Shown here: in pieces, positions 18,421-42,322 of the stretch | How positions within the stretch are numbered: the stretch's first letter is position 1 | Layout: each line of letters opens with the position of its first letter | NCBI GenBank assembly: GCA_963514005.1 | Contig: OY740812.1 | Span: 10,602,001 to 10,666,000, forward strand | From: Raja brachyura | Lineage: Eukaryota | DNA length: 64,000 nt | Reading direction: 5' to 3' | Notes under the pieces: model-generated | Databases searched by the model: none | What the model was told of the DNA's origin: nothing | What the model saw: the letters and a program-made list of their open reading frames with translations, nothing else | Program-made: the position numbers and the translations under genes

Positions 18421-20109
18421 TCTCTGAGGTATATTTGCAATTCTCTTTTGGAAATTAGGGATAGATTTATGGCTTCAGTATTTGAAATGGATTCTTTGTT
18501 GATGATGCGCCAAGGAGCTCCATAATCTGCTGGAATGTGAAAGTGCGAAGCGAATTGTAGTGTTATATTTACAATAATTGAGGCTTTCATTTGACATAAT
18601 AATACTGGATCCAGCACACAAACATTGACAAGGTTGCTGATGGAGGCGCCTGATCTGTTTAGTGGCTGTGTTGTGAACGTTGTTCCTGAGGTTTGAGTCA
18701 GGAGGGAACTGAAGGGTACAAATTGGATGTAGGCCAAGTCTTTGAACATGATGACAAAATGTCATCTGAAAACGTAATAAAATAAAAATAAAGATTCACA
18801 TTGTACATGCCGTTTATAGCCTCGGGTAATCCCAATGATACAGAAGGGTTGTCAATGGTACAATATAGAACATAAGGCACCCTGCAAGATCCCATGAACA
18901 TCACTCTGATAATGCCACATACAGTAACCCAGTTTAGTGATGTTAATTGATGGGATAAATATTTGATATAACACTGAGGAAAGCTTCTCTGATTTTCTAC
19001 AACTTAGTCCTGCACAATCTTATTATGTTCTCCTGAAAAATCAAGGTAGTGCCTCATTTAATGTGGCATCCATAACATGCCTTCTCTTTCTGTACAGTTC
19101 TCCTTCGTGCATCAATCTGCCAGATAGCTTCCTCTTTGGAGCGTGTCCAAAACCCAGCGTAAACACAAGGCCACCGCATGGTTCTCACTTGCCAACAAAT
19201 GTGAGAAGTTGTTGCAGATGGAGACGCTGTTGATTTACTGTCTGACGAAGACCAGAGAAACACACCACTGTTGGGCAACTTCACAGCTCGCATAAATGCT
19301 ATTGTAATATCTGGAAATCCCATTTCCCAACACTCGCTCAAGGAACTGATGAAATGTCAGAAATGCGCAAGAAAAATTGGTAAAGCACATGATAATTATA
19401 AATCCATGAACTCACCCTTTCTAATGTAGTTTCTCCCAATTGACTGATCTTTTTTGAATCATTTATATTAATATCAGTTCTTCACCTAAAATAATTTAAC
19501 TGTTTGTACCACTGACTCAGTTTTTGACCACGATGAGTAAAATCATGTGGTCAGCTTAATTATAGTATTAAATACATAATACATGGTCATGAAGTTATGG
19601 TTAGTACCTCTAGCTCTGAACATACTGTTTAACGCAGCCTTGATAACACTTTCATATTCCACAGAAATCGTTATTAGAACACTTCAGTTACGGAGTCATA
19701 GCTATCAGTTTTGTCATCTATGTTTTGACTTCAATTTTGACGCTGAAATAAGCAACTGTCACCAAGTCAACGACAAATTGTATCAAGCAATTGTGTGACT
19801 CCTGGCTGAACAGTATTCTCTGCAGCTTATTCCAGTCTTTAACGAAAATCTAAAACCAGATTTGTGCAACTGTCTGATAAGTTCCTATCTTACCACCAAC
19901 ACACTCTGATCTCAGAATGCCCCACAGTGCTTACAGCCCATGACAGGCATTTGGAAGAGTGGTCACTACTCCAGAGCAGGGAAGTGTAGCAGCCAATTCG
20001 CACACAGCCACTCAATCAGTGAATCCTGTTCAGTGCCATTGCCTGAAGAGAAAATAACATGCATTGCTTGCATCTTGCTGAGTCAGGAATTTTGGGGAGA
20101 AGGCCGGAA

Positions 20110-20545
20110 AATGGCGTTGAGGGAACGATGGATCAGCCATGATTGCATGATGGAGTAGACTTGATGGGCCGAATGGCTTAATTCTGCTCCTATCACTTAT
20201 GAACTTCTGAACATTTCTTTGGGTGAATGCACAGTCTTTTATCCAGGTTAATTAAGAACGAGAGGACATAGGTTTAAGGTGAGAGGGGAAAGATTTACCA
20301 GGAACCTGAGGGGCAACGTTTTCACACAGAGGATGGTGAGCACATGGAATGAGCTGCCAGAGGAAGTAGTTGAGACAGCTGTTTAACAATTTTTTAAAAG
20401 GCACTGGATGCATGGATAGGAAAGGTTTAGAGGGATATGGACTAAATGTGGGCATTTGCGACTGGCTTAAATGGTGCATCTTGACCGACACTAACAGGCT
20501 TGGCTGATGGGCCTGTTTCTATGCTATCTGACACCGTGACTCTAG
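20110..20545 (+). mobile_element. Two adjacent CR1-clade LINE 3' fragments
   Basis: ggatcagccatgat...gggccgaatggc tail, then aagaacgagaggacataggtttaaggtgag...ttttcacacagaggatggtg...tggaatgagctgccagagg. Confidence 0.7.
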
Positions 20546-21028
20546 TGTCACAACGTTCTTCATGTCTCCAAGATGCTCAATAGCACCTTGATTTTACCCC
20601 TCATCCAAAAAGCAACATCTCCGATATCAAAGCACTCTCTCTATGTTACATTGGAATATCAATTGAGATTCAGAGTGAGACATAAACCCACGTACCTCCA
20701 ACTCAAAGCTTCATCTATCCTCTAAGCTATGACTCTTTGGTGCTATGAGCTACAGTATGAACACTTTCGAAGACCCATTATGTTCAATGATCCACTGATC
20801 CATGTACCTTGCACTGTGCATTAGCTCTGGTGATCAGGACCATTCGCCAGAACACTTATTAATCAAACAGACTTAACATTACATTATACTGGGAATTTTC
20901 ATAGACTAGGAGAAGGCATTATGAATACTAAACCAGAAAACCAGAGATGATCAAAAGACTGTTGAGAAGATTGGTTCTCAAAGAAGGATGAAAAGATGGA
21001 GTTAGAATCAGTCTTACAACATCTACGT

Positions 21029-21088
21029 GGCAGCATCTCTGGAGAGAAGGAATGGGTGATGTTTTGGGTCAAGACCCTTCTTCAGACA
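21029..21088 (-). mobile_element. Penelope-like terminal repeat fragment (CpG-decayed)
   Basis: ggcagcatctctggagagaaggaatgggtgatgttttgggtcaagacccttcttcagac. Confidence 0.75.
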
Positions 21089-21764
21089 TATCTTGATAGC
21101 CAGGAAACTGCCTATCATAACCAATGTAGGAAAGATGCATGTCGAAGAGTACTAATATACCCTAGAATCTTAGAATATCCATTCTCCTTCTTGTCAATAT
21201 TCAGTCTGGATTGGAAACCATGGATTGCCAACTCTATGGACCCTTTGAGTTCCTGTCTCTCACTTTCCATGGAAGAGAAGCAAACTCCAATATAATTCAC
21301 AATATGACAGCACTGTTGGGTAGTGAGTTGCTGAGATGACTGCAATGGCTGCAGGGTAACAGCCCCTCCCCCACACAATCCCATTGCACTCAGAGCTTGA
21401 CAGGACTTGTTGAATTGTTGCGTCTGTATCAGAAGGCAGTGAATTCAGTCCCCTAGCCAGCACATGTATGCCTGATGTGCCTTATTCCCTGTGTGGAGTA
21501 CAAAGGGAATGCTGCATTGTCAGATATGCTCTCCTGAGGCTATACTGGAGCCTCAAATGACTGGCCTGATGTAATTTAAATAACATAGCGAATATTAACC
21601 ATCTTCCGTGCAAAAAAAAAATATTCTCCATTAGAATGTTCAAACTAGACTACAATCTAAAATAACGAATAAGATAAATGGTGTTTCGATCAAATCTCAC
21701 ATCCCATTCGATCTGATATGAGAGGAATGCATTGCATCAAGACCAGATCAGTTTTGTCCCTTAC

Positions 21765-22030
21765 CGTCCGTCCAGCCTCGTTGTTATGTCGGTTCATGGC
21801 AGACCTGGCATCGGGCCTGTTCTCCCGTGCGTCAGCAAACTCCCTGGACACCAGCACGCCAAACTCGGCATCCTCGCTGCAGCCCCCCCACTTCCAGCCC
21901 TCGCCCGGCGGACCCTTGTGGTGCGAGTCGCAGCCACAGATGGTGTTGGAGCCCTCGGCACAGGAACGTGTCACGGCAAAGGCCACTCCAGCTGAGGCAA
22001 TGGCATGGACAAAGGCAGACTCCCGGGTGG
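21765..22030 (-). CDS. WNT3: Wnt-3 exon 3 (266 nt)
   Basis: ATRESAFVHAIASAGVAFAVTRSCAEG...CDSHHKGPPGEGWKWGGCSED...HNNEAGRT. Acceptor caacttccAG at 22032-22031 after a long pyrimidine tract, donor GTaagg at 21764. Phases fit exons 2 and 4. Confidence 0.97.
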
Positions 22031-24289
22031 CTGGAAGTTGAGACAAAAAGGAGAGAAGGGGATCAGGACATGGACAGATTTCAACACTGCCACAGAAAAG
22101 AAGCCAATGATTCATGTTTTGTAATCTGAACTAATGACATGATGCATCTGTAAACTATTGTGAAGATGTCTGTTGTTAATGTTTGTGTTTCTTTGATCAT
22201 TAGACATGTAATTAATATATATTACATTAAATAGCAGACAATATATTGTGGTTTAAAGAACGTTTTGCCAATAGGACCTCTTCTGAGTATCTGTGGCTGA
22301 AGTCATAATGAATTGAGGCAGTAATGATATTTTACTATCTGATCACCTTCATTTTGTTTACAACAACCTGGCTTAGAAATAATTTTGGAAAACTCTCCTA
22401 TGATTTGTCACTGAACCTGAGAGTTACATTAATTTAGTTCACACAAGTGATTCGGGATTAATTACAATGTTTGTAGCCAGTTGGATAGTCTACTCCTGAA
22501 AACATTTTAAATGAAGCTGGAATGAAATGTTCCTTTAAAATGTTTTTATCTTCATTGTAAATTTGCAAGTATTTTTTAGGAGAGGGGGGGTTGCTGCTAC
22601 GTTCTCTCTTACAAATCTCTTGTAGGGATATTCAGATCTACCACCCTTACTTTTTCATTTGTAAGCTATTTTACTGAGGGGGCATCACAGCCAAAACTAA
22701 TCTTAGATTCTTCCTCATGTGAAAATGCATGCATAATTTCAGCAAGGGTTAATGAATACTAATCAGGAGTGGGGCCTCTGGGTTATTTATTTCCTTCCCA
22801 CTCAGAGACAATAAACGCATTCGTAGGATGGTGCATTTTTTTGCTGATGTTATTACATACTGCTGGAGAAACTCTTCAATTAAAAAAGGGAAGCTGATGA
22901 TGAGATTAGCTCTTTAAAAAGAAGCATTTATATTGTCAATCATCTTTGAAGGTGAAGATCTCCAAATAAAGAGGTCATTTGCGATGAAAGCTCCCTCTTT
23001 AAAGATGATGAGAGTCACTGCATAAAAATAATAACCCTCCCATATTGAAAGGATTGTTGACAACATTTCTGTTAAAAGAGGTGCTTATGGTGCGATTCAC
23101 TCGTTAAAAGTGACACATTAAGAAGAATTATTACCAATGTACTATATAGAATTATTGTCATGCTAAATCTTCCCCGTATAAGAGGTTTGCTGATTCCAGG
23201 CGTTTGCCTTTAAATTGGGATGTACGTGAGATTTCCCCATTAAAAAAAGGCACTGATTATTACCCACACTTCATTAAGACGAGCACCAATGGTCGCAGCT
23301 AGGCATTAAAATAAATTTCAGTGGTTTACTGATAATCTTCAGCTCTCTTTTCATGACATCAACAAACCCCAGCCATTGAGTTGCACACTGGGGACTCCTG
23401 TCAAAAGCATCCATTATTATCTTGCCAGTTGGCAGGGAGATCAAATTAGATGGAATCACATCTCATTTCTATATATTGAATTAGAAAACAGTTAAGTAAT
23501 AACATGAAAACATTAATGGCACTGTATGATATTTCTTTGTGCTTTTCTAGAGTGCTGGAAATCCTTTTACATTTTGGTTATTATCTCCTCAGTTGAAAAG
23601 AAAACTAGTAAAATGTAATTAGGATATGATCATGTTTTTATATTATCAGTGTGATTCCCCCACCCATTTATATATCTATTGCTTTTGGTTGAGGGGGCCA
23701 CACTGAGTTTAAATCTGGTTGACCACTTCTAATGAACAGTCCGTATCCATGAGAGTGTTCACTGTTGGTTGTGTCCAATGTGAAGATGTCCAGAGTACAT
23801 GAAATGGTATTTCTACATACAAGCCTTTGCTTCTCCATTTACTCATATTGGCTCCATGACCCTTTAATAATCTTACCTAACAAGATCCCAGCAACCAAAT
23901 TGGATCAGCAAACCAGCACAGTTCGGAGAATGATCCGACAACCTTACGGGCTCTCATGCTCTGTTCTATAATGGACACATTCACTGTCTCCCTTCTAATT
24001 AGTTGCATTTCCCTATCCAGCACAGATAATGCCATCAATCATCACTGACAAGCTACTTTCTAGTTTTGTGTCAATGTGTTCCGTAACATATGATCCAAAC
24101 TTAGAAATCTGCTCTATGTAAAGGAAAGGAAAGACATAAACAGAAGCAAACTAAAAAAAAAAAGACTTACACTTATAGGATGCATTTGTAAGATCAGGGA
24201 ATCCTAACGTACCTAACAATTAATACGGTCATTTGAAATTGGAGGTAGTCATTGAAGTCAATTTGCACACAGCAAGTTTAAAGAAAGAA

Positions 24290-24465
24290 ATTTAGTTTTG
24301 TTTATTCCATTGTCACGTGTACCAAGGTACAGTGAAAATCTTTTGTAACATCCTAACCAGTCAGCGGAAAGAAAATACATGATTACAGTCGAGGCATCCA
24401 TTGTGTACAGATATATGATAAAGAGAATAATGTGAATAATGTTTAGTGCAAGATAAAGTCCAGTA
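24290..24465 (-). mobile_element. 3' end of a non-LTR element (possibly Rex1/Babar-like); second copy at 32517-32603
   Basis: Shared ...aaggtacagtgaaaa...ctaaccagtcagcggaaaga with a (tttag)n-type tail. Clade assignment is tentative. Confidence 0.55.
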
Positions 24466-26326
24466 GATGTAGAAAGGAGTGGGTGTAGATTGTGGCAGCA
24501 GCCACCTTCACCCTGGTTTACAGAATGGATGTTGCTCAAAGGATAAATGTTGGCGAGAATACAAGGACCACTACCCTGGTCTCCATCGTTTTAACCATCT
24601 GAGGGTACAGACAGTTTAGCATTGCGAACAAAAGTGATATATTTTCATTAATCTGCTGCAGAGCTATAAGAGATATGAGCTTACATATTATTGTACATTT
24701 AAGTTGTGAATCCCCTGGTGCTGTTTGCTGGAAAGTTCATTACATGTACTTCAGAACCATAATAGAATTTTTACTGGGGGTAATCACGTTGAAATTTGAT
24801 TTAACTGTCATCTCCTGAATTTTTAGCATAAAGAAGGAAATCTAGCTTTATTTTCCCTGAATCTAACAATGATTAAAAAAAAACACAATGCATGTCATAA
24901 ATACTCAATTGGGTCTTGGATGTCCCTCACAGAAAGAAACTTGCCACCTCCTTCTAACCTAAAGAAACTTGATGGTGTTGTTGGCTTTTAATGTCCATGG
25001 GAAAACTAGATGTGCATGATGCTTAACGATACCCTGAAAACAAACAAACAATTATATATTTCTGCTTAACCCTGGTCCTCTAAATGTAAAAGAAACACGA
25101 TGGGTGAAAGATAAGAGGGTTGCACTGAAAGGTCAATGCTGAATATTTAGCGAAGTACAGACGCCAGGAGTAGAACAAGGAGCATGGTGTTAAAGTAATT
25201 GTGAACGAGGGACTCACCAAAAGAGCAAGGGCAATGGACAGTGATGTAGGATACACAATCAGTGTGTCCTGGGACAGTTTAAAGGTGTGGGATGGTCCTG
25301 GGATTAAGTATGAGAGAGTGAGTGTGAGAGTGTAATGTCGGAGGTGTGGGAATGCCCCGTGACAGCTCAGGACAGAGGCCGACTCTCTTGCCTGGAAAAT
25401 GAGTTGCATTACCTGCTGAGTGTCTGAATCTGCCTTTGTTAGCTCGGTGTCACACTGTATTATTAATACAATAGAGAGAGTTACTTCAGGCAACGTTACC
25501 CACTGCAGAGTTCTGGCATTCCCTGACAAATCGTAGCAACAGCCAACTATTCTTAATTCTAGTGTGTCCCCAATCGGGTGGGGTGGACTAGGAAATCCCT
25601 ATTGAAACACTTTCATCAAAATGACTAAAGGGCGTGTGAATGGCACAGCTATGGCCCTAATCACTAGTTCGCGCTGATATAGTTTGCCCTCTCTCGCAGT
25701 GGGGTAGAAGCTTAACTCTTTTTCTCAGTATAAGCTTATTTTGCTCTTTTTAATCCCTTTAGCTCATGAAGCATCAAAACTGATCCTGAGCATTTCAACT
25801 CAGAAGCAAATAATGTTTTTTTTTTTTTTTAAAGAAGATATGGTTTAAAACTTTAATTTAATTGGCAGTAATGGAGGAACCAGGTCGTAACATCTTGTCG
25901 GGTCTGCTGACCTGGTGCTAAGAGGGGGGGTGAGTAGAGGGGGCGTCGCGGATCAGGGTAAAGGTGTCAGCGAGTGCGACAAGCACACACTCCACTGTAA
26001 TCTCAATGCTCCCAACTCACCCACCACCACCACCCCCCCCCCCCCCCCCTCCCCACCTCCCCGACTTGATTGAATAGCGAGAAATTTCGAAACCTACTGA
26101 ATCTCCGAAGAGAAAGGGGAGAGGGGGTAGAACCACAGGGGCACAAATCAAAAAACAGAGAGCAGCTAAAGTTAAAAATGAATAAACATTTTTAAAGCAG
26201 GACTTCGAATACAGTGCCGGTTAAAATTCCTTACACGGAATTCTCGGTTAATTCTATGATTAATTAATTTGTTCATTCAATTCTTAGGAACGAATAATTC
26301 TTTAATTCATTCGTTGATTTATTTTG

Positions 26327-26425
26327 AAGATAGACGCAAAAAGCTGGAGTAACTCAGCGGGTCAGGCAGCATCTCTGGAGAAAAGGAATAGGCGACGTTT
26401 CGGATCGAGACCCTTCTTCAGACTG
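26327..26425 (-). mobile_element. Penelope-like terminal repeat with intact hammerhead core on - strand
   Basis: Reverse complement of 26394-26421 is ctgaagaagggtctcgatccgaaacgtc. Confidence 0.8.
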
Positions 26426-27822
26426 ATTTAAATCGAATGCTTACTCCATTGATTTAAAAATTCACACATTGTGGGCTGTGGAGAGCTGAGGTCGGCCAAA
26501 TCTCAATTTAAACAAAACCCGTAAAGGCATTGTGTACCAAGTGTGATCGGTCATCATAAACCGATCATGAGTTGACCTGGTTGAGGATTTAGACCCGAAG
26601 TATGAAAGCCAACATCACATTGAATGTGAGGGTATTTTAGTGGTCAGGTAACAATGGCTCAGAATACCACGCATTACTTGTAAAACGCTCCCATTGTTGC
26701 AACAGAAAGAGCAGGGCCAATATAACAGTAATACCAAGCCCCCAAATCAGTGGCCCCGTGCACTGTAAACCGTCCTGAATGGAAGATGTTTTCGTTCTAA
26801 TAAAAAATCTGATAGAGAATTAACCCGGTATTTTCTCCTCTCTCTGACATTCTCGCCAAATTACATTTCGTGGAAATCTAATACCACCAGCTCAATTCAG
26901 CGAATGTTGGAGAGAAAGAATCTATTTTGAGATTTAGTTCTCAAAAACTCATCTCCTCCGGGACTTGGTGCGAATTGGTTGTGGACAGCGGGAACCGAGG
27001 CAGGGAGAGGATTTGGCAAGGAGCAACGGGGAGGTGCAGGAAGTTACAGAGCGCCGTGGTTTCTGTGTACCGTTCAGCGTTAAAGGTTGCCGAGGGCAGA
27101 AAACTCCACTGCGTTTTCACTTCTGGAGACGTGTGCACAGAATCGGGGCTGGGGTTTCTTCGCAGTGGTTAAAATAAAGTGTAAGAAGTGTCTATCTTCG
27201 GTGTAAACCAGCATCTGCAGTTCTTCCTACATATAAAATATTCTTAATAATGAGTCGTGCAACATCATAACAATTTCTCCAGATTAAAATATACGAAAGC
27301 CAGAGGTGATTCGTTTTTTTTTCTCCCTTGACGTGCTCTGCTGTGAAAAGTGACTGCAGACGTGCTCCAGAACTCCTTCTAAGCGAAATCAAACAAGTCG
27401 TTTCGAAATGACCTAATGGGCCGTGCACTCTATTCATTCCACTGCACCTTCGGGTGCATTTGACGAATAAAATTGACTTTGACTTTGACTCAAGGAGCTG
27501 GGGTACAGAACGTGCACACGAGTTTGTAGCTGGTTTACGAAGTGGCATTCCACCTTTGCGAATGGGCTGAGTGCCAGGGAATTTCAGTCTGGAGGCGTCA
27601 TGCAGGTCTCAACACTTTAGGTAGAAAGTTGCTGCCGATTAGTCACAGTCAATACAATATTGTGCAGAATCATGTGGAAAGCAAATTCAGAAACCTCTCT
27701 AAATATCCCCCATAACCTACATTAAACACTTCTGGCAAGATTTTTATGGAATCTAAAAAATATATATATTTTAAATTCATTCAGGGAACGTGGGCGTTGC
27801 TGACCAGGTTAGGATTTATTGT

Positions 27823-28034
27823 TAAAGAAGGAACTGCAGATGCTGGAGACTCGAGGGTTACACAAAAAGCTGGAGAAACTCAGCGGGTGCAGCAGCATCT
27901 AAGGGGCGAAGGAGATAGGCGACGTTTCGGGTCGAGACCTTTCTTCAGACGTCTCGACGCGAAACGTCGCCTATCTCCTTCGCTCCTTAGATGCTGCTGC
28001 ACCCACTGAGTTTCTCCAGCTTTTTGTGTAACCC
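27823..28034. mobile_element. Penelope-like terminal repeat, fold-back insertion (young subfamily)
   Basis: Near-perfect ~80-bp inverted arms plus tail. TSD ttaggatttattgt at 27809-27822 and 28035-28048. Confidence 0.85.
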
Positions 28035-28048
28035 TTAGGATTTATTGT

Positions 28049-28197
28049 GTAGGAAAGGGTAGGGTTTTAGGGTTCGGGGCTGCAGATGCTGGTTTCCACT
28101 AAAGGCAGGCACAAAATGCTAGAGTAACTCAGAGGGCCAGGCAACATCTCCCAAGAAAAGGAATCGGTGATGTTTTTTTGGGTGGAGACCCTTCTTC
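28049..28197 (-). mobile_element. Second, older Penelope-like terminal repeat at the same target site
   Basis: Family motifs gctgcagatgctgg...gagtaactcag...gagacccttcttc, followed by a third aggatttat at 28198. Confidence 0.7.
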
Positions 28198-29460
28198 AGG
28201 ATTTATGGTCATTCCTGAGCTGAGCTGGTTAATAGGTTGCCTGCATGTGCACTGAGAGTACTCCCACAGTAGCAGGGAGCTTCAGCAGTTTGAATGTAGA
28301 CCACAGACTGGTGATCAAGGCAGAGTGGTCATCTTTTTTGAAGGGGAGAAAGGATAATTGTACAGGCAGCTGATTGGGGTTGGTGGGGGTGTGGGGCCAC
28401 AGGTGTGCGTGGGTATGTGCTTGGAGTACATGTTGCAGGAGTACATCTTGTTGATGTCGAGAAGAGTGTCAAACACCCTGCTTTGCCATGGTGTGAACTT
28501 TTATGAGTTTTGATGGAGCTGCGCTGATCCAGAGGGATGGATAGTTGGGATGTCATCTACTCACTGTGGAAAACCTATATCAAAATATGTGTCCAGTCAA
28601 GCTGTTCATCAACGGTGTCGCCTCGATGTTGTCCAAGTGGTTTGGATGATGTTTACGTCATTGAATGCCTTTGGAAGGTTATTGAACTTTCTTGTGCTGG
28701 AAATGGTTCACGCCTGTTACTTGTATAGTATGAAAGTTACTTGTTGAGTTTCAGCTCAAAGCTGAATATTGGTCCAGACTTGTACAAATCCGAGAAATTG
28801 GGAATGGACCCAGATTGCGGAATTATCAGTGATCTTACACAATTCTGACCTGATGGAAGGAGGAGCAGCTAAATGAGATGGTCCACACTGCCTGAGGAGC
28901 TCCTGGGGTGATGACTTCAGTTTGATAATTGACTTCCATTCATATAATCGTCCTCTTATCATGTGTATGAGCTAATGTTAGACAAGAATTTTCCTTTGAT
29001 TCCTATTGACTTCAATCTTTTGTGGATCGATTTGATGTAACCTCTGGTCAAATAATATCTTCATATCAAGTGCCATTGTAAGTGCCATCTTACATATGAA
29101 ACTCAGAGACTTTGCCCCAGTGTGGATTAATTCTGGTAAAGAGGTCTGAAATTATGATTCTGGTGGAACACAAACCATGCAATGTTGATAGATTAAGAAG
29201 TGTAAATATCTCTTGATGACATCTCTCATGATCTGCTGATGATTAAGAGTGGACAACTATAACAGCATTTGGCCAGATTAGAATTGTCCATCTTTAGTAA
29301 GCAGCAAAGTTTTCCACTTTGTTGGTTACACAGGGAAACATTCCTGTTTGCTGCCTGATTCTACGCTTCAAGGATGAATAGAATTCAGAAAATTAGAGAT
29401 CTCATTCATGTAATTTAGGAGTTCATGAACTAAATACATAAGAGAATGGATATAATGGAT

Positions 29461-29599
29461 GCTTCTCCATGGATTGTCACCTTGTCGTGGTGGAGAAGCC
29501 CGTGTGGTCCTGAGATCGAAGCCATCTGGAGCTATGCCCCTGGTAGGGCCACCCATGGTGGTAGGGTCGAGGGGGATGTCCCTGACAAAGCACAATCCA
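29461..29599 (+). ncRNA. Predicted HDV-like self-cleaving ribozyme
   Basis: P1 GCTTCTCC 29461-68 / GGAGAAGC 29492-99. P2 TGGATTGT 29470-77 / ACAATCCA 29592-99. P3 ACC/GGT closing L3 TTGTCGT 29482-88. J4/2 C-A-A-A 29586-89. Long P4 region containing CCACC/GGTGG and CCCCT/AGGGG. Confidence 0.65.
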
Positions 29600-29864
29600 A
29601 CCAAGACCTCAACGGTGGAACAGGCGGAGGATGATAGCTTACTTTAGTGGAGCGTCACACCGGCTGGAAGGCGGATGAAGGCTGCAGCAGAAAAGTGTCA
29701 CCGGTCGTCTTGAACTCCATGCCACTGGATCTTGACCCAGATCTGTCAAGAACCGTGTGGTGGCTGTCTGTGCACCAGTCTCCCCATGTTAAACAATGTC
29801 ATGCACAGGTGTCCTCAGGAGAGGACAGTCATACTCGTTTTGAGTGACTGCTGATGATGATGAT
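29461..29864 (+). mobile_element. Non-autonomous RTE-type short retroelement (RTE 5'-UTR-like head, (GAT)n tail)
   Basis: TSD gaatggatata at 29444-29454 and 29865-29875. GC-rich body with no substantial ORF and a (GAT)4 tail. Head motifs ccttgtcgtgg / gagctatgcc / tagggccaccca / ctgacaaa resemble RTE (BovB/Expander-type) 5' UTRs, recalled from memory. Confidence 0.75.
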
Positions 29865-31859
29865 GAATGGATATAGATTTTGACTATCCGATCTACCTAT
29901 ACATTTTGTGCCAAGGTTAACCTGAATCAGAACTTCATAACATTCACAGGATTCCTTCAGGATGTCGGTTTCAATCTCAATTTAGCCCATAGTACAATCT
30001 GGGGCTAGTTTTGCCCTGTGTTTGGTCTCACGTTGAAGCCTGTTTCATTGGGGTTAGAGAACACAGATGGAGAGGTTCAAAAGGATGGTGTTTCACACCC
30101 AATGAAAGGTTTGGGAGGGAATCTTTGCGACTGCTAATTTGGGGCACAGTGTAGCTCAACAAACACCAAGCTGATAGATAACGTGTTCAGAGGTTTTGGG
30201 TGAATCGATGTTTATGGAGGGTGGAAGATTGTAGTCTGGCCAGAAGACATCTGAAATAGTTCTGTCCAGATGTAAAAACATAATGGGTGAAGTTTTTCGC
30301 ACCAGATAATTTGAAGCATACACAAAACTAGGCAATATTTAAACTACCTATATTGGACCATTTATTTGCTGAATAAATATAATTTCTAGTGGAATCATCA
30401 GATGCAACTACCATTAGACTTGACCTGATCCCAATTCTATTGTCTGATATATGAGGTTAAGCAGAGTAATGGACAATTATCAAAGAGACTTTCTTCAAAT
30501 AAGGCCACAGATGGTAAAGTCGTCAATAATTACCAGCAACATTAAATGAAATACGCTCTTCCATGTATTATTTTTACGGTACGACTTTAGGCTCATTTTG
30601 AATCTCCACTGGCCTTAGCCTTCCCTTATTGACAGCCAGCAATGATCTAGGTTTTGTTTCATTAATTTTAGCAGTTCCACACTTACTACTGGTACAAAAA
30701 TTATATAATCCTGTGAATTGTCTGTGAGACCTTTGGTCAAGAGTGCCACCCCATCCAGACAGAACCAAGTGCAGGTAATTTCATAACTTCATACCACATA
30801 AGTAACTGAAGTTCAATTTAATTTGCAGTGACTTAGATTTATTTGGCCACAAAAAAAAATGCGTACTAGGAACAGATAATAAAACAATGTTCTGATTTTG
30901 TACAAATACATCCAAAAAAAAGTCTTCTAACGTAATGTTTGATAATTAAGGATCAATGACGATAAACTTCTGGTATCGAGCTTTGAATCCAGTTCAAACA
31001 AATGGGGGTGAAAATTGCTTTTATTAATGGATGATAAGATGTGTGTGAAGTTACTTTGGTTTGTACTATACCCATTAGCCTCAGGCATGACACCACAGGA
31101 TAATGAACCATACCCTTCATTACAGCTGCTGTGGGACATGGAATACATTTCTCCAAGTTTAGGTGGAGGTTGGCAGATGGGAAAAATTCTAACATGCATT
31201 ATCCACTCGACATGGACTCTACAATTTGACCTGGAACGTTACCTCGGTTTCTCTTTCCACAGATACTCCTTGGCCTCCTGAGTACTATGACTATATTCTA
31301 TTTTATCTCAGATTTCCAACATCAGCAGCCTTTTGATTTTTAACTCTGTTACATAATTGTGAAAGGGAATTAATCTGTAATACATTCCATTTCTTTTCAC
31401 TGGCATAAATTGAATGTGGAGAAACAGGACTGATTTTCTTAAACTATTGCTAGTCTAATTTTTTTCAACCAAATTCCACCAATTCAATTGCTATTTAGGC
31501 AGTATAACAAATGGGGATTGAACAGTAACTCTGTTTCATATATGGTTCAATATCATAAACCCACACATTAAGCAATCTAATTTTTATTGTCTGTTCCTCA
31601 ATGTCATGCAGAATTGAAAGACCTGTTATCTAAGCCTTCACATCACTGCATGGGACACTAAAAGAGAAAATAATGACACATTTGCTTTGATGATCGTTGT
31701 GATCAGTACCTCAGCAATTCAGTATCTCATTATAGTAGTCTCCAGCCTGCTGACTTTGACAAATCATATAAACCAACATAGACATGAGGCTGGCTTAATA
31801 TTAAGACTAACAAATCACTGACTTAAAGTTAACACATCATAGAGATGGCAGATGCATGG

Positions 31860-32180
31860 AGTCTCATGCCCAGAATCGAGGACCAGTGGACATAGGTTCA
31901 AGGAGAAGGGGAAAAGATTTAACAGGAATCTGAGAGGTAACCTTTTCCACACAAAGAGTGGTGGGTGTATGGAATAAGTTGCAAGATAGTAGTTGAGGCT
32001 TGGACTATCCCAACATTTAAGAACCAGTTAGAGAGGCACATGGATAGTGCAGGTTTGGAGGGATGTGGAACTAGCGCAGGTAGGTGGGACTAGGGTTGCT
32101 GGGACATGTTGGCTGGTGTGGGCAAGTTGGGCCGAAGGGCCTGTTTCCACGCTGTATCACTCTATGACTATGACTCTAGA
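31860..32180 (+). mobile_element. CR1-clade LINE 3' fragment
   Basis: ccacacaaagagtggtgggtgtatggaataagttgc...gggccgaagggcctgtttcc...(ctatga)n tail. Relatives at 35570-35695 (+), 52855-53080 (-), 53445-53710 (+) and 61285-61525 (+). Confidence 0.75.
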
Positions 32181-32516
32181 TTGTGCAGCTGAAAATTTAT
32201 CAGAATTAAAGCATATTTATATCAGAATAAAGTATATAGTTCTTACTTTGCTCCTTTTTCCTTTATACACAATATACATTTTACACAATTTAAAGTTTTT
32301 TTTGTGATAATTTGTTGTTTCCAGTGGTATGGAAATCCAGCATTTAATTGCTAAGGGAAGATGATTGGGAAATGCGAACTTGAACTGTTTCAGCTCTGGT
32401 GGCGATGGAATTCCCTAGTAATATTAGGGAGGATGTAAACAAAAAGGAATGGTTATGAACTTCTAATTATGGTGTGTGGTAAGCAGGGATACTGGCAGAC
32501 ATCAGTGTTTCCTTGT

Positions 32517-32603
32517 GTTTAGTTTAGTTTATTATCACATGTACTAAGGTACAGTGAAAAGTTTTTGTTGCATGCTAACCAGTCAGCGGAAAGACAATAT
32601 ATG
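32517..32603 (-). mobile_element. Short copy of the 24290-24465 element end
   Basis: gtttagtttagtttatt...aaggtacagtgaaaag...ctaaccagtcagcggaaaga. Confidence 0.55.
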
Positions 32604-34464
32604 TGCCCCCTATTCCCGTGTTTCTAGGTGACAGAGACTGGAGTTTGGAAGGTACTGCCATGGAAGCGTTTATGAATTGCTGCTGTGAATTTTATAGCTG
32701 GTATGTAATAGCTGTAGTGTGCAAGTGGTGGAAGGAGTAAATATTCTGAGTGTGAGGTTTGAACCCAGTTAAATAGATTGCATTATCCAGGATTGCTCCA
32801 TTGCTTGGGTATTGCTGCTTCAGCTCTCATCCAAACAACTAGAGACTTTTTCCATCACAGTTCCGACTTGTGCTTTGTGAATGCTTTGAAAAGTCAGAAG
32901 GTTAATTATTTGCTTCAGGATCTTTCACCTACTCTCATAGCCACATGAAAGTTAGCTGTGGTCTAGATAAGTTTCAGATTAGTTGTAGATCATCCCAGAA
33001 TGATGATTCAACAGCTGAAAGATTGTAATTTTCTGCCACATATTTATTGCTAGCATCCCATATTAGCATCAATGATCCCAGTGTAAAGGTTAGATGGAAA
33101 TTAAATTCCATCTCAGAAATATAGCCAGACCACAATCAATTGAGGTAATCTACACAATGCCAGAGTCATAATTTCCTTAAAAAGTGATCAATTTTCATTC
33201 CATTAGGTGGGGTCAGTAATTCAGTGAGTATGAGGGACCTATTTGATATCTTTCTAGAAAATTAAACATGCCTGCTCAAAAAATATATTTGAAGAATCTC
33301 CAGCAGCTGGCTGGCAGATAAATTTTAACCCTTCAATCTAGGCTGTATTTAAATCTAGAATCTGAAAATAATGCAAGTATTGTAATCCATGATATCCTCT
33401 TTAACAATAAAAAAATAATACCTGATGGCAACTTGAATTAACCTTTAAAGAAGCACATTAAAACAAATGATGGCAAGCTGAAGGACTGCGTTGAGGAGCT
33501 GTGGTCAAATATTTGATCATTGATTTTAAGAAATGTTGTAAGCAGAGGTGACAGGTCAATGAGTTTTCATGCTTTATAATGTAGTATTTATCTGTTTAAC
33601 AGGTCATCACAGAAAGTTGTAAACAAACAAAACGAGTAAGAAAGTGAAAGCCACAACCTTATGGGAGCATTAACAGACACATTATGAAACTACTAAGGTG
33701 CAATCCTTCATCAAACGGTCCCTCTTTGTGACCATATACAAAAATAGCAAACAATTCTTTGATTAGGTGATGGAGCAGCTGCAAATGGAGGCTTGAATTT
33801 ACAATGATGCTGACAGCCATGCTCTTACTTTTATCCAATGTTTTCTATTGTCTGCTGTCGACTGTTTCCTTGGCTTCCTTGCTATTCCTCCCTTCGTTTT
33901 TCCCCAATCCTCAATTGTTCATTGGTACTTTTTAGTTACATGTGCCTAGGGAGAATTACATTCTTTTTTCTGCAAACAATTCAGTAAACTCCTACTATAC
34001 ATGGGCACAATTATAACAAAGTGCAAGAATAAGAATAGTAGATATGACCAAGGCAGTACACAAGAATCACCACTTAAGCTCATAACATAGTTTCCGACAG
34101 TCCTAGTCCATCCAGTACATCACAACAGAAAGACCTTTGAGAAAGACCAGTTTCAGTTGCTCCCAGGCCCACATGCTCCTATTACCCCACAATGCTCCAA
34201 AAACCCCTTGGTGTACACCAGATCCTGAATTAGATGATTTGTGTTGGGAATACCAGGAGATAATAATAACTGCGGTACAATTCATCCATAATACATTATC
34301 AGTGGTAGAGTGCAGAAATAAACAGACCTGCACAATCAAATTTCTCAGTCACAGGGTGCAAAGTGATTCTTGTTGTATTCTGTACTGAAAGCTGTCTGTG
34401 CTGGATATAGGAGAACTTTACACCAGAGGGTGGATCTGTGGCATTCATGTATTAATATAAAAAT

Positions 34465-34890
34465 AGACTGAAGTAGGAGTAGGCCATTTGGCCCCTTACC
34501 TGCTCCTGTTCTCAATGAGATTGTGGCTAATCATTTAACTGAACATGACTCCCCTGTCCTAACCCCATAACCATTACTTTACTCACTATCCAAAAATCTA
34601 TCAATCTCTAAATTGAATGCACTCCGCAAATGTCCTTCCCCACAACCATCTTGGGTAGATAATTTCAAAGACTAACCATCTTCTGGATGAAGAAAGTGTT
34701 CGTCTAAGTCCTAATCTCCTTCTTTTGTAACTGGTTTCGGAAACTCCAGCCATGGAAACGCCATCCCAGCATCCACCCTCTTAAGTCCATAAGAATGTCT
34801 TTGTTTCAATGTCATCACTTCTCATTCTTTTAAAGTTGAGACTGCAGACGGGCTCAGTCTGCTTAAGGTTTCCTCACAGGATAATGTTCC
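34465..34890 (-). mobile_element. Old CR1-clade LINE 3' fragment
   Basis: gtaggagtaggccatttggcccc... is a diverged version of the young CR1 3' end at 48250. Confidence 0.6.
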
Positions 34891-36679
34891 CCACACCCTG
34901 CTTGGCTTCTCATGGGCTTGGAACGGAAAGTCCTGAAGAGTGTGTGATTAATTTTCTCATTGTAGTACAAATCTGCATTGTATCTCCATGTTACTTTCTA
35001 TACTGCTATTAGCCTCATAAGTCCCAACCACAACAGTGTTTCTGTTTCCCATCCGAGGCTCTTATAAATCCGCTGACTGAGATTTGAGGCTTTGTGTGGT
35101 GTTTTTCTATGTGGATCTTGGGCAGTAGGTTCTGGACTTAAGAGACAGGAGAAGTCTCACCACTTCATTTTTTTCTGCCATTCCTGCCAGTTCACCAAAT
35201 GAGAAACCCTAACGTTCAACAAAATCTCAAATAGCTACATATCTTAAACCTTGCAGAAGCAACTGTTTCTTTCTATAACTAAAGATCAAGGTGGTACCAG
35301 GAATAATTTAAAACATGGAAAAATATAGCATTATAATCAAGCATAATACACCTCCAGTTACTGAAACTAGGGGCAAACGCTTAATAAATGACAGTTGAAC
35401 TAAACTAATTTGAGGAAATGCAAAAGATTGAATGGAAAGAACAGCAAAAAAAACTAGGATATCACCATGGGACTTGTGGGAAGGAAGGGCAGGTAAGACT
35501 TGAATGTTCACCAATTTCTAATGCACAGCAAGCTGCCATCAACAAGCAATAAATGTGTCAATGCTTTACAGGTAACTAGACAGATCTAGAGGGATATAGG
35601 CCAAATGCAAGCAGGTGCGACTAGTGTAGCTGAGACTTATTGGCTGGTGTGGATAGGTTGGGCCGAAGGGCCTGTTTCTACACCGTATGACTCTAAAGGG
35701 TGTCATTTCTGGCTCAATGGCAGCTCTCCTGCGTCACTAATAGCACAAGGGCAGACAAGTTTTAAATATATTGAGCGTTCAGAGGGGTTGTGTTTGGAAT
35801 GTATGCCTTCGACTGGGAGCATCATTCACCAGGAAAATCTATTGTATCACTATGGATGAGCTTGCTATGAATTTTCATTCATCCAGTGTATACGAGACTG
35901 CTGCATAGACACTGGGGCTTCATGCTGAGAGCACTCAGTCAAAAAGACTAATGTTGCATGATACAACCAATTTGATCAGAGTAGAAATCCACCATACAAT
36001 GCAGATTTAACAACACAGAAATGTTTAAGAAATGATATACAAATTGCATAAAATGAGATGTATTCCAAAAATGATAAAACTATTTACCAAATGCATATCA
36101 CATCACATGTTTCATTGTGGGAGTTACAAAATTGTGTTCCAGATCTTTGCCTCTAGTTTTGCCTTCGGTGTTAACATATTTAAAATAAAGGGATCTAAAA
36201 CGTTATTAAAATAACTAAAGAAGAAACCTCATCTAAATTCTTTAAGCATTTGTAATTGGTTTCCCATGGCTTTATCTCAAAACCAACATGTTTATACACC
36301 CTACTTAGTGTAGTAATAGATAGGATTACAGTTGTATATGAATCCACGTTTTAGACCACCATATTATAATTTTACACAACAAATCGTAATATGAAATCCA
36401 GTAATCCACCACAGCATTCTTCATTTCCTAGACTTAGAATAGGTTCTCAAATGTCCGAGACTTGATACTCAGGAGTAGCTGAATCCAAGCCAGAGCCGGC
36501 ACATTTAGCCCGATATCTTCCTGGCCAAGATCTGACAGGTCCTAAATATTCAGCAATTGCAATCAAACCTCAGATTTATGAAGCCAAGATGGATCAATTT
36601 TACACTTGGCAATATAGCAGGGAAAGAAAGACTTTTAATTATAAAGTGCCATTCATGTTCTTTGGAAAATTTAAACTGT

Positions 36680-36955
36680 ATTATAGAGTTTAGAGATACA
36701 GCGTGGAAACAAGAACCTTTGACCCACCTAGTCCATGCCGACCAAGAATCACCGACACTAGTTCTATCCTATACACTATGGACAATTTACAGAAGCCAAT
36801 TAACCTAGAAACCTGCATATCTTTTTGACGGGAGGAAATCGGAGTACCTGGAGAAATCCCATGCGGTCACAGGGAGAACATACAAACTCAGTACAGACAG
36901 CAGCCATAGTTCAGGATTGAACCTGGATCTCTACCACTGCACCACAGTGCCGCCC
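36680..36955 (-). mobile_element. tRNA-derived SINE with CR1-type tail (HE1-like elasmobranch SINE)
   Basis: Minus strand begins gggcggcactgtggtgcagtggtaga (A box) ...ccaggttcaatcctg (B box). Core matches the copy at 49405 and the tail matches local CR1 3' ends. Confidence 0.75.
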
Positions 36956-37066
36956 TGTTAATTAACAATGCACAGAGGTATTCTTACTGATATAACATAT
37001 GAATGCCCTGCATTCTCTTGTGGCCTGCAATGTCATAAAGACGACAATCTGGGTTTTCTTGAGTCA

Positions 37067-37202
37067 TGTGTAGGAAAGAACTGCAGAAGCTGGCTTAAAT
37101 AAAAGGTAGGCACAAAATGCTGGAGTAACTCAGAGGGACAGGCAGCATCTCTGGAGAGAAGGAATGGGTGATGTTTTGGGTCGAGACCCTTCTTCAGACT
37201 GA
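37067..37202 (-). mobile_element. Penelope-like terminal repeat with tail
   Basis: tgtgtaggaaagaactgcag...gggtcgagacccttcttcagactga. Confidence 0.8.
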
Positions 37203-38159
37203 ATATTGCTGAATGTTGGGTGGGACGTTGGGAGAAATTCTTCAGAATTCTATCATGGGATTTTGTTAGTTCATCTAAGGGGACCTGGGTCAAATGTCTC
37301 ACCCATAGAGAGCTCTTCTGCAGTTCTCTACGATTAGTTGTGCCCGGGTGGGCTTTTAACCCATGACCCGAATCAACGGAGGCTAAGTTTCTGAGTGGAT
37401 AGCTGAGTTTCTCCAGCCTTTTGTGTACCCATGTTTATCACTTGTTGATCTGTCTGCATGAAGTCACCAGTTCATCCCGTGCTCTCTGCATATAAATTTA
37501 ATCAAAAATGGCCTTAGGCGGCTGAAAATGCAGGAGATATGCAATGTGCGGAGGCAGATGGAAAGCGAGATGTCATCAAGCAGAATGTTCCCTCAACTGA
37601 CACATATTTTGGTAGGGAGCCAAGCAATGAAAGAAATGTGGTGATAATTAGTAAACTCAACTGGGGTAGTCAGGCGTGTGGAAACCAACATATATTTAAC
37701 AATATAATTGAAAAGGGCCTGCTGATATGATATTTCAGCTCATTATTACCTTAGAGATTATTTTCCTTTTGTGTAGATAGCTCACCAACTTTGGTGATAA
37801 AAGTCCTGATATAGGTCCCCACCCAAAGCCTTTCACTTGCACATTCTGACAAAGGTATGGAAATTATTTCAGCACCCTAAAACTCCTTGCGTTTTGTTTT
37901 GTTTGGAACGCTATCTGCAAAGAGAATCCTACACTGATTTTCAATTTACCCTCTCCTCAGTGTTTCCAAAAATTCCTTCAACGGTTATGTTCAAACTTAT
38001 ACCGTGTGCCAGTGAAGCCTTATACTTTACAACACCACATATATTTTATATGATTTTATTGGATAAATCTGTGCAGATTCACAGTATTTCATCCAAGTAA
38101 CCTTATAGTGTGATGTGCAGGTTAGTTTACTGATTCTTAACATGGCTAGTGTAACTGTT

Positions 38160-38286
38160 AAAGAAGGAACTGCAGATGCTGGAAAATCGAGGATACACAA
38201 AAGGCTGGAGAAACTCAGCGGGTGCAGCAGCATCTATGGAGCGAAGGAGATAGGTAATGTTTCGGGCCGAAACCCATCTTCAGACT
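38160..38286 (-). mobile_element. Penelope-like terminal repeat with tail
   Basis: 17-bp TSD tggctagtgtaactgtt at 38143-38159 and 38298-38314, with an extra partial copy at 38285-38295. Confidence 0.8.
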
Positions 38287-38419
38287 AGTGTAACTAGTGG
38301 CTAGTGTAACTGTTTGGAACATATCAATATTGGATGAATTTGGGCATACATAGAAACTTCACAGAATTCCAACATTAATGATTTGATTATGAAGTGAAGT
38401 CAATAACATAATATCAGAG

Positions 38420-38545
38420 TGTTAAAGAAGGAACTGCAGATGCTGGAGAATCTGAAGAAGGGTCTCGACCCGAAACGTCGCCTATCTCCTTCGCTCCTTA
38501 GATGCTGCTGCACCCGCTGAGTTTCTCCAGCTTTTTGTGTAACCC
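38420..38545. mobile_element. Penelope-like terminal repeat with internal inversion
   Basis: ~31-bp tail in - orientation joined to the body in + orientation. TSD aacataatatcaga at 38405-38418 and 38546-38559. Confidence 0.85.
38452..38479 (+). ncRNA. Minimal type I hammerhead ribozyme motif (PLE-type)
   Basis: CTGAAGA-A-GGGT(CTCG)ACCC-GAAA-CG-TC: both conserved boxes, stem II, a GUC triplet and the self-complementary ACGT in place of stem III. Stem I is very weak. Confidence 0.6.
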
Positions 38546-38634
38546 AACATAATATCAGAAATGGGCAGATAGTTTGCACATGGAAATGTCCCACATAAAA
38601 CGATGCAATAATAACCACATTATGTGTGTCAGTG

Positions 38635-38731
38635 AAAGACACAAAATGCTGGAGTAACTCAGTGGGCCAGGCAGCATTCCTGGGGAAAATGCATAGATGA
38701 CATTTTGGGTCGGGACCCTTCTTCAGACTGA
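38635..38731 (-). mobile_element. Penelope-like terminal repeat fragment
   Basis: gacacaaaatgctggagtaactcag...gggtcgggacccttcttcagactgaag. Confidence 0.75.
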
Positions 38732-38914
38732 AGGGCATCCTCCTCTTCTTCAGAAACACATATCTGCATCCTCTAGTCATCCAAATCTTACTTAAAATAC
38801 AACATTTCTAATATTGGATATCTCACTCGATAATATTTGGGAATAATGGATTTATTGATATACAAGTCTCTGAAAGGTAACCATGATGCTTTAATATATT
38901 GACTCAATGACACA

Positions 38915-39403
38915 ACCAGACTGATTCCTGGGATGTCAGGACTGTCTTATGAAGAAAGACTGGATAGACTCGGTTTATACTCTCTAGAATTTAGGAGATT
39001 GAGAGGGGATCTTATAGAAACTAACAAAATTCTTAAGGGGTTGGACAGGCTAGATGCAGGAAGATTGTTCCCGATGTTGGGGAAGTCCAGGACAAGGGGT
39101 CACAGCTTAAGGATAAGGGGGAAATCCTTTAAGACCGAGATGAGAAAGACTTTTTTCACACAGAGTTTGGTGAGTCTCTGGAACTCTCTGCCACAGAGGG
39201 TAGTTGAGGCCAGTTCATTGGCTATATATAAGAGGGAGTTAGATGTGGCCCTTGTGGCTAAGGGGATCAGAGGGTAAGGAGAGAAGGCAGGTACAGGATA
39301 CTGAGTTGGATGATCAGCCATGATCATATTGAATGACGGTGCAGGCTCGAAGGGCCGAATGGCCTACTCCTGCACCTAATTTCTATGTTTCTGTGTTTCT
39401 ATG
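38915..39403 (+). mobile_element. Young CR1-clade LINE, 5'-truncated (ORF2 C-terminus plus 3' UTR)
   Basis: GLSYEERLDRLGLYSLEFRRLRGDLIET...RTRGHSLRI...FFTQ...WNSLP, ending in a (tttctatg)n tail. Confidence 0.92.
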
Positions 39404-41599
39404 ATAACTATGCCATTATTCGCAGATAGTTGATAGCATGACTAGTACATACTGAATTAGTTAAAAATGCCAATTTATTAAAATATAAATAATTGGCATT
39501 TTATACATTATGGAATTGTATGTTGTTGTTTTCAATCCAATTACTTCAGGTGATACAGTAACTAAATGCCAGTTTTTGGCTGTTCATCTAGAACTACTAA
39601 AGCTACACTATATTTTACAAATCTATGTAATATGATCTTTAGGTAAATTGTGCAAATATAAATAGTTTACATTGCATTCTTATATATCTCAATGAATTAT
39701 CCTTTCCAAATCTACCAAACATCATCCGGAATGAAATTTGGGAGATACTAACATTGAAACGGTTAACAGATTGATGCGTTAATTGCCTTACTAGCCTCAC
39801 TAATTGCTCTGCATATTGTGGATTCATGCAATTGCAGGGTGGCAGAAGCAAAGTGTGTCACTACCGTCTTTCAATTAATGCAATATTATGAGAGTTTGAC
39901 TTTATTTTTTTTTAATTGCTTCCAATATTACACATGCTAATACAGAGTAATTCAGAACCACGTGGTCAGATTGAGAAGGATGGCATCGATGGCTGTATTG
40001 GGAAACTGAATAAATAGATAATGGAGAATAAAACAAAGGGTTATGTTGGTACAACGAGAGAAAGAAAAGCAGGAGGTAGTTTGTATGGAATAAAATCTAT
40101 GTAAGTTTATTGAAATAGATACTGTATCTGTTGAAAAACTAATTGATGTAGCTTTAAAGCCAGAGACTGCAATAGAGGCAACAGAGAACATGGCCAACAT
40201 TACGTGTCTGAAACCCTGCTACCATACTACAATGCATCATACCATAAACAGTCATCATATACTGTGTTTATAATATATTTGGAAGAATTTGTTATCAATC
40301 CAAACTTTGACTCACCAAACCCTAACTGGTATTATAGATACATAAAAGCACTATTTGTGACTCAAACATAAAGCATCCAAATACACATGATATGAAAAGT
40401 AGTGCAGCATGCAAAACTGCCACCAACATATATTGCTCTACATAATCCTATAAAACCTTAAGAACCAATACTTACATGTGAATATTTTTCACATATTTGC
40501 AATATCTATCATGCAGTTTGTTGAAGTTGAAGTGTTTTTCCTACACTACCTCATCCTCTTCCAGGATCCCAAAATGAGTCACCTCACCATCCCAGTATTT
40601 CACTTCCGACTGCTGTTTATAGTTGTGTTGGCAAACAACACCATTTCTATATGATTTACCTTGTAGTTTTTGCACCTATGATAATAATCCGCATTATGGA
40701 AATTGTTCCTTTGCAAAGGTTTGTTCAATTTTAAAAATAAAGGACATTAAACAAATCTCCAAGCTTCAAACTTTAACATGTTGACAATTGCACTGGTGAC
40801 CATTAAAATAAATTATGGAATTGTCTTCTTTACAGATAACCTTGATTAAAAACATTACATTAATTTTTAAAAACTCAATTTCATTAGTCTTTAATTGCTA
40901 ACTCAATAATTTCCCATAGCAAATTGAACTAAATTTTTACTTACTCTATTTTATGAAACTAAATTTGATGTTTAAAAATAACTCAAAAGACATTTATTTC
41001 CATTTAAATCTCAGTTATTGTCTATCTTAAGTGCTTTTCCAAGTATAAATAAGAAAAAAATACCCTTGGATGCAGTAGGGTGAATTTAATGTTGAAAGAT
41101 AAAACTAATGGGTTTCCACTCCTCTTTACTTGAATCCATGATTTGACAAAAAGTAAATGGACTAGAATGTGGTAGCATTATCAAATTGAGTTATTCTTAT
41201 CCCTTCTCAATTATAATCATGGCACCAAGTCTAAAGTAAATCTTAGACTTGTAAGTGGGGGTGATTTCTGTTTATGTTGCCACAAACAAAATTATGATTC
41301 AGCCAACCATATAACAAGGCCAAATTCAAGAACAATTTACCAGTATATGTCCCAATGAAAACTCAGTTTGACACATTAATTTTGTTTCACGTTCGTTTAA
41401 GTACTCGAGTATTGAGCATGGTGCTTAAGGTGAAATGGGAAAGATTTAAAATGGATCTGAGTGGCAATGTTTTCATACAGAGGGTAGTACATAATATGGA
41501 ACGAGTGCTGGAGATTATGGTGCATGATACATGGCTTGAAAAGGTTCGGAGGCATATGAAGCAGGTACAGGAACTACCTTGGTCAGGCAAAATGTAATA

Positions 41600-42070: not shown

Positions 42071-42322
42071 GATCAACTGAACCTAAAAAATTACCTAATC
42101 TTGTTCAGGCAACTTGGTCGGCATGGACAAGTTAGGGAATAGGACCAGTTTCTAAGCTATAACGCTCCAGGACTCCTTTCTAGTATTTGATTCCTAATTT
42201 CCAGCATCACAGTGTATTTCTTCAGTGCTTGCATTTCTGTCATGTTCAATGAAGGAGCATATGGAAAAGCACCTCACAAAAGTGTAAGCAGCCAAAAATT
42301 AACATCAATGCCAAGAAACTAA

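Follow-up and report, generated by a model that had tools for sequence, protein, structure and literature searches.

The window analysed here is a 64,000-nt (64-kb) stretch of Raja brachyura DNA (GenBank assembly GCA_963514005.1, contig OY740812.1, positions 10,602,001 to 10,666,000), and an intron of its Wnt3 gene holds a short insert. We read this insert, at a probability of about 0.8, as a decayed copy of a high-copy non-autonomous retrotransposon that arose by internal deletion of an RTE element and whose first 138 nt form a predicted ribozyme of the hepatitis delta virus (HDV) type, likely cutting the RNA of the family just before C29462. The comparisons given below demonstrate its two-part origin and copy number, a 5′ boundary that coincides with the opening base of stem P1, and a conserved, covarying fold. 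An earlier note on this DNA had proposed a non-autonomous RTE derivative headed by such a ribozyme; the present account keeps that proposal, moves the start of the element by one base and redraws P1 and P1.1.

The predicted HDV-like fold

The head of the insert can be drawn as a nested double pseudoknot in HDV order, all pairs of which are present in the window copy (Table 1), and by this model it would belong structurally to the HDV-like class. The P2, P3, L3, J4/2 (C29586-AAA) and P2′ placements of the earlier note were all confirmed in the sequence. L3 contains what we take, in HDV numbering, to be the equivalents of U20, C24 and G25, and J4/2 what is presumably the invariant C of C-N-A-A. 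P1, previously given as 7–8 bp with a G1-C pair, is 7 bp long and opens with C-G; the 8-bp version with G29461 as G1 was ruled out by the random base at position −1 and by the counts of 5′ ends described below. The partner of G29484 in P1.1, formerly placed at C29500, is C29499, since 29500 is T in 114 of 121 family copies and in 19 of 20 representatives, and 29499 covaries with 29484. What had been listed as deviations from HDV proved to be common to the subtype: the first pair is C-G in 15 of the 20 representatives, P1.1 is G-C in 13 and A-U in 6 of them, and a 1-nt bulge in P2 is present in most rows of the alignment (A1) described next. A descriptor made up of a 7-bp P1, a 3-bp P3, a 7-nt L3, a one-pair P1.1, C-N-A-A and P2 had exactly one match on both strands of the window (P3 at 29479, C at 29586), versus one per 40 Markov-resampled windows.

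An 18-nt core pattern retrieved 99 metagenome stretches, many of them chance matches, and alignment A1 consists of 13 hand-picked metagenome stretches with the flanking layout, the window copy, its parent element and a second RTE family of the same genome. Across these 16 homologs, which come from several lineages, the P2, P3 and P1.1 positions pair in 97.5% of 199 cells, compared with 76.5% after shuffling and 33–44% with slid partners, and changes on both sides of a pair occur in eight of the nine P2 pairs and in P1.1 (G-C in 11 homologs, A-U in four, G-U in one). RNAalifold recovers P2 and P3 unaided. P1 was scored apart because the length of J1/2 varies; it has six or seven Watson-Crick pairs in 15 of the 20 representatives versus none of 80 flank controls. 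J4/2, unlike L3, was left free by the search pattern; its C is invariant in A1, the next base is variable, and the last A of C-N-A-A is invariant across lineages. Covariation, looked for in P1, P2 and P3, was thus found across lineages for P2, P1.1 and P1, whereas copies within the family are uninformative on this point because they stem from few sources and decay neutrally.

The compact homolog L226 shares the core but has a short hairpin as P4; in its metagenome contig it precedes an open frame of 449 aa that looks unrelated, a context that is not a recognisable RTE. In two unrelated contigs (L184, L258) the head is duplicated in tandem, with two cores ~157 nt apart. Endonuclease-like peptides were seen by eye at three termite-type loci (L184, L208, L250). 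Short ribozyme-headed elements of ~300–360 nt with microsatellite tails occur in DNA of other animals within metagenome contigs (L237, L260, L197), which suggests the same design elsewhere. A candidate family with an A-U P1.1 in the skate genome was discarded, as its single match is a mutated copy of the same family.

Origin, start and spread of the family

The derivation from an RTE was borne out by parent elements with both ends in the same genome (L284, L379). L284 is an RTE-type element of 3.6 kb that starts at the same C, has a 12-bp target-site duplication (TSD) adjoining this first C, and has broken frames for apurinic endonuclease (APE) and reverse transcriptase (RT). Window positions 29462–29816 match its nt 1–364 at 86.5% identity and positions 29817–29862 match its nt 3565–3610 at 93.5%. 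Judged by sequence, both ends of the insert come from one autonomous element with the open reading frame (ORF) deleted, making it a bipartite non-autonomous RTE of the kind called short internally deleted element (SIDE). The parent was found with a tail-only pattern, DNA searches with the 3′ part having given only short copies. Head, body and tail stand in line in two of the 40 longer stretches fetched (L284, L304). Half of the 30 exact tail-motif matches have a decayed RT body upstream in place of the head, and the head lies upstream in 15 of the 20 best endonuclease matches, 10 of these 15 starting at its first bases.

A single APE+RT ORF is the architecture of RTE elements. Relatives of the parent retrieved from the protein database each consist of one APE+RT ORF of ~1,000–1,100 aa, and the parent itself has the single-ORF APE+RT layout, a length of 3–4 kb and a short-repeat tail. 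In the matches listed for 150 of the 682 scored candidates, no open frame exceeds 475 aa, which makes the parent appear extinct. Teleost fish sequences are among the named relatives of its protein (L379:3930-4547), at 57–68% identity, which is high for that distance, and horizontal transfer is possible.

The family begins at C29462 and not, as had been claimed, at G29461. Among 116 head matches at loci picked by their 3′ sequence, 40 start at C29462, 57 start at +1 to +3, and 78 reach the first 13 nt. The 112 copies that reach the start are random at positions −8 to −1, with G in 17, T in 37, A in 44 and C in 14 at the place of G29461, and 84 of them have C at +1. A TSD was recognised for 47 of the 125 copies that extend to the 5′ end; 15 of these TSDs adjoin +1 and 8 lie one nt off. 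Contigs that depart from the reference just before 29462 number 89 and 92 in two public DNA runs. With a random −1 base, C at +1 and 5′ ends at C29462, G29461 must be flank. The pile-up of 5′ ends predicted for G1 is present at the first base of P1, that base being C29462; as a sign of the predicted cleavage site this coincidence of genomic 5′ ends is indirect, and the RNA reads described below have no such pile-up. A second cluster at +9 was an artefact of a mismatch in the window query and vanished with another natural copy as reference. The left TSD had been said to be separated from the element by atggat only; a spacer is there, but it comprises 7 nt (29455–29461) including G29461, and it was presumably added at insertion.

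The insert had 3,585 first-look candidates in the 2.7-Gb genome, and the 39 best of its other matches span nearly the whole element, with 88–90% identity. A core 22-mer occurs 1,346 times (reversed control, 0), and among 77 copies that were selected by 3′ sequence and extend to the 5′ end, 28 contain it exactly; extrapolation from these counts suggests ~3,700 or more 5′-complete heads. The dispersed copies have a common junction, TSDs and a microsatellite tail, as expected of an element that spreads as a unit. The window copy differs from the column majorities at 7.9% of sites, compared with a median of 4.1% for 121 other copies in a sample biased to conserved ones; it is old and decayed, and the family appears extinct.

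The head is found with two tails. Thirty loci taken by the core 22-mer in genome order comprise 17 with tail B, seven with tail A (that of the window copy) and six unclassified by regular expression, and exact tail motifs number 258 for B and 137 for A. The head of the window family is present at 29 of 30 tail-B loci, and at 7 of 40 fetched loci tail B matches, at 84–96%, the 3′ end of another RTE family, whose endonuclease is ~40% identical to that of the parent. The ribozyme head has likely changed drivers, with ~13 nt at the junction unexplained. No ribozyme was recognised at the apparent 5′ end of the tail-B donor family (loci L360, L364, L370, L374, L378), which seemingly has a bipartite derivative of its own (L158:1050-1540, oriented). 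The tail-B subfamily, the commoner one, ends in GAA/TAAGAA repeats and has two junction variants (L152-L181, L353, L362, L364, L368, L372, L374, L376). A second RTE family present in this genome bears a ribozyme version of its own, in which P1 is compensated and P2 pairs without requiring a bulge (L341, L346, L348, L356, L363, L365).

Mechanism, alternatives and activity of the window copy

In the course of events that we propose, read-through or a start site upstream of +1 would yield RNA from a sense-oriented source copy, and the ribozyme would fold and cut this RNA at +1. The APE-RT protein of the parent would then bind the 3′ tail and carry out target-primed reverse transcription into a new nick, which would leave the TSD and the (GAT)n tail. 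The 7 extra nt would result from re-priming on the target.

A first alternative, which we consider rather unlikely, is a dual head as in L1Tc/NARTc, in which most of the RNA would come from an internal RNA polymerase II promoter and the ribozyme would do no more than trim its 5′ end. The ~355 nt of 5′ untranslated region (UTR) kept in both tail classes include 215 nt beyond the need of the ribozyme, Pr77 of L1Tc and NARTc is promoter and ribozyme both (PMC3185411, PMC3383444), and a review calls RTEs promoterless only in general terms (PMC6765202). However, neither a TATA element nor family-wide RNA polymerase III (Pol III) boxes were found in the head, and the boundary lies exactly at the base with which P1 opens; cleavage accounts for this position without any promoter. 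This alternative fits an active ribozyme and disputes only the word promoterless.

It is improbable, in our judgment, that the fold is a non-cutting 5′ module, serving RNA protection, protein binding or the translation start of the parent, with the 5′ end set in another way. The 1-nt J1/2, the pyrimidine at +1 and the lack of cut ends among the RNA reads of one run would agree with such a module, as would the cap-like protection that an HDV-like fold gives to R2 templates according to a review (PMC13708176). Yet lineages that exchange P2 freely all keep the catalytic C and the last A of C-N-A-A, and trypanosomatid ribozymes with C at +1 do cleave (PMC3185411, PMC4035085). A chance fold within some ordinary repeat has next to no probability as the source of the pattern and is already largely refuted by covariation in the 16 homologs; the coincidence of the pattern with the 5′ end and the rarity of descriptor matches in resampled windows also speak against it, although no Rfam match was obtained and the single-strand folding energy is ordinary (z −0.17, by a method without pseudoknots).

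Several observations count against the preferred reading of a self-cleaving, RTE-derived element. The search pattern fixed P3, L3 and four P1′ bases, so that these columns are no evidence for the metagenome rows, and several alignment rows are related to each other. Within the family, conservation of the core is 0.96 versus 0.97 for the rest of the head, and compensatory variants are uncommon; the lack of excess conservation is expected of neutrally decaying copies. All core features are kept in 31 of 121 copies, a number that includes 5′-clipped copies. Neither the window stretch nor six homolog loci had an HDV-type match in Rfam; its models cover single lineages, and such a match is therefore not a defining feature of the HDV-like class. 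No RT or endonuclease match to four protein fragments was found downstream of the metagenome heads, and assignment to the RTE clade is based on architecture and known motifs. An internal promoter would also yield a pile-up of 5′ ends. In RNA run X16 (polyA, another organism, ~6% read), from which 465 and 292 reads were placed on the element, there is no place where many molecules begin at +1, and 73–82 reads cross +1 into one flank, their source copy having two P1 changes. Finally, J1/2 is 1 nt long in the window copy, and a 1-nt spacer led to little cleavage in drz-Agam-2-1 constructs (PMC4908430).

The window copy keeps all core pairs and C29586, and by the model it probably cuts poorly, or may not cut at all. 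G(−1) can pair with C29499 in competition with the one-pair P1.1, and a G(−1) that extends P1 and disrupts the one-pair P1.1 was proposed to lower cleavage in L1Tc (PMC3185411). T29500, which is kept in 19 of 20 representatives, is C here, and the upstream stutter can pair with 29466–70 in the predicted fold.

Most RNA reads of run X16 (window:29462-29865) come from the one copy with two P1 changes and are mostly in one orientation; they are probably part of a host transcript, antisense to the element. The listed sequencing runs that contain the element included no RNA run, and X1, one of nine runs with a small share of it, looked like DNA.

A wider interpretation, to which we give somewhat less than even odds, is that a portable, promoter-independent ribozyme head replaced the Pol III head in a family of the scale of short interspersed elements (SINEs), outnumbered its parent and moved on to the tail, and with it the enzyme, of a second RTE family. 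In this interpretation the head would belong to a single compact and catalytically active subtype (C1-G, bulged P2) that extends through RTE-like elements from insects to fishes and is missed by Rfam.

The insert in Wnt3 and among known systems

Table 1. Coordinates of the insert, its predicted ribozyme and the host gene (numbering of the window)
Feature	Position	Strand	Remark
Host Wnt3 gene	15213..45824	-	coding exons within stop-to-stop frames 45549-45824, 21690-22130, 15213-15704
Left TSD, 11 bp	29444..29454	+	seen in sequence
Extra 7 nt between TSD and element	29455..29461	+	partial re-copy of target plus G; G29461 is position −1, outside the family
Non-autonomous bipartite element, RTE-derived, 403 nt	29462..29864	+	
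Head, first ~364 nt of parent RTE 5′ UTR	29462..29816	+	86.5% to L284
HDV-like ribozyme, predicted	29462..29599	+	predicted cut 29461/29462
P1 5′ strand	29462..29468	+	partner strand 29492-29498, opening with C-G; J1/2 is 29469 only
P2 5′ strand	29470..29478	+	29470-77 with 29592-99; C29478 with G29590; 29591 bulged
P3 and 7-nt L3	29479..29491	+	29479-81 with 29489-91; L3 29482-88 with presumed U20/C24/G25 equivalents
P1 3′ strand (29492-98) and C29499	29492..29499	+	C29499 forms the single P1.1 pair with G29484; across lineages this pair is G-C or A-U
P4 region	29500..29585	+	in the window copy, 29500 and 29501 are T>C and 8 family columns are missing after 29507
J4/2 and P2 3′ strand	29586..29599	+	predicted catalytic C29586 (C-N-A-A)
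Tail, last ~46 nt of parent RTE	29817..29864	+	93.5% to L284; (GAT)4 end at 29853-29864
Right TSD	29865..29875	+	seen in sequence

The 11-bp TSD, the (GAT)4 tail and the lack of a long ORF in the insert were all as first described (Table 1). Three Wnt coding frames lie on the minus strand, the last one nearest to Wnt-3, which places the plus-strand insert antisense in an intron of Wnt3, between coding frames 45549-45824 and 21690-22130; the antisense position agrees with the earlier note. Being antisense to Wnt3, this copy would not cut the Wnt3 pre-mRNA, and there is no sign of a host function for it. The reported absence of A and B boxes holds for the family but not strictly for the window copy, in which loose regular expressions match an A-like box at 29488–98 and a B-like box at 29514–22; the letters of the latter are private to this copy, 29516 and 29520 differing from 114 and 117 of 121 copies, respectively. 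ARAGORN found no tRNA in the element, and Rfam gave no 5S, 7SL or tRNA match on the window stretch. On the letters available, the element is thus not a Pol III SINE, which would have a small-RNA head with A and B boxes; its head is rather the 5′ end of the long interspersed element (LINE) itself. Elsewhere in the window, an inverted pair of LINE 3′ fragments of 478 bp and 96% identity (38915–39392 and 48248–48725) lies inside the Wnt3 gene, and a minus-strand stop-free frame of 282 aa (7768–8616) in a purine-skewed stretch may be a plus-strand LINE fragment.

No description of this family was found in the literature searched, a search that did not extend to Repbase and Dfam. HDV-like ribozymes in RTEs are reportedly credited by citing papers to Ruminski et al. 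2011, and the subtype of the window head may already be shown in that work or its supplement.

The ribozyme-headed bipartite design is already published, for R2 SIDEs, NARTc and bipartite RTEs. The R2 SIDEs of Drosophila (Eickbush and Eickbush 2012, PMC3414825) likewise join a 5′ HDV-like ribozyme to the 3′ end of an autonomous element by internal deletion, and in R2/R1 hybrid SIDEs the ribozyme of one element stands on the tail of another, as in the tail-B subfamily. Those SIDEs are rare, specific to rDNA and dependent on 28S co-transcription, whereas the window family is dispersed, has thousands of copies and comes from an APE-type RTE; it provides a large vertebrate example of the SIDE design, and its tail swap extends hybrids of the R2/R1 type to dispersed elements.

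NARTc/RIME/SIDER with the L1Tc ribozyme are similar as dispersed non-autonomous derivatives whose +1 is the cleavage site and whose P1.1 is a single pair (PMC3185411); in NARTc the same 77 nt serve as an HDV-like ribozyme, active at +1, and as a promoter (PMC3185411, PMC3383444). L1Tc also has C at +1 (a primer in PMC3185411; the 'C1A39' mismatch in PMC4035085), and its G(−1) can extend P1. These elements differ in belonging to the Ingi clade of trypanosomatids and in having a 77-nt ribozyme with a proven internal promoter, while P4 alone is ~85 nt here and the ribozyme is predicted. In drz-Agam-2-1, an HDV-like ribozyme associated with RTEs (PMC4908430), there are a large J1/2 domain and a 12-bp P2, as opposed to the J1/2 of 1–3 nt, bulged 9-bp P2 and long P4 of the present subtype.

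Also close in layout are RTESINE1/2, MAR4_MD, WALLSI3, RTE-N2_Lch and Bov-A (Kojima 2018, PMC5786205), which have the 5′ and 3′ ends of RTEs, no ORF and no tRNA head. That study tied the intact 5′ ends of bipartite RTEs to a predicted 5′ ribozyme and described tail exchange; the covered portions of its main text contain neither a ribozyme structure nor a cartilaginous-fish example. The window family offers a testable structure for a ribozyme heading RTE elements, together with natural covariation and a corrected prediction of the cleavage site. It would permit a direct test of a suggestion made by Kojima 2018, namely that bipartite derivatives arise from RTE, Ingi/Vingi and R2 because the ribozyme frees them from the need for a promoter. 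Since RTE UTRs are in use as gene-insertion templates (PMC13708176), it is also of practical use to know if the 5′ UTR cleaves itself. By analogy with these systems, the window family would be a new member of the bipartite non-autonomous RTEs that works in the manner of an R2 SIDE or NARTc.

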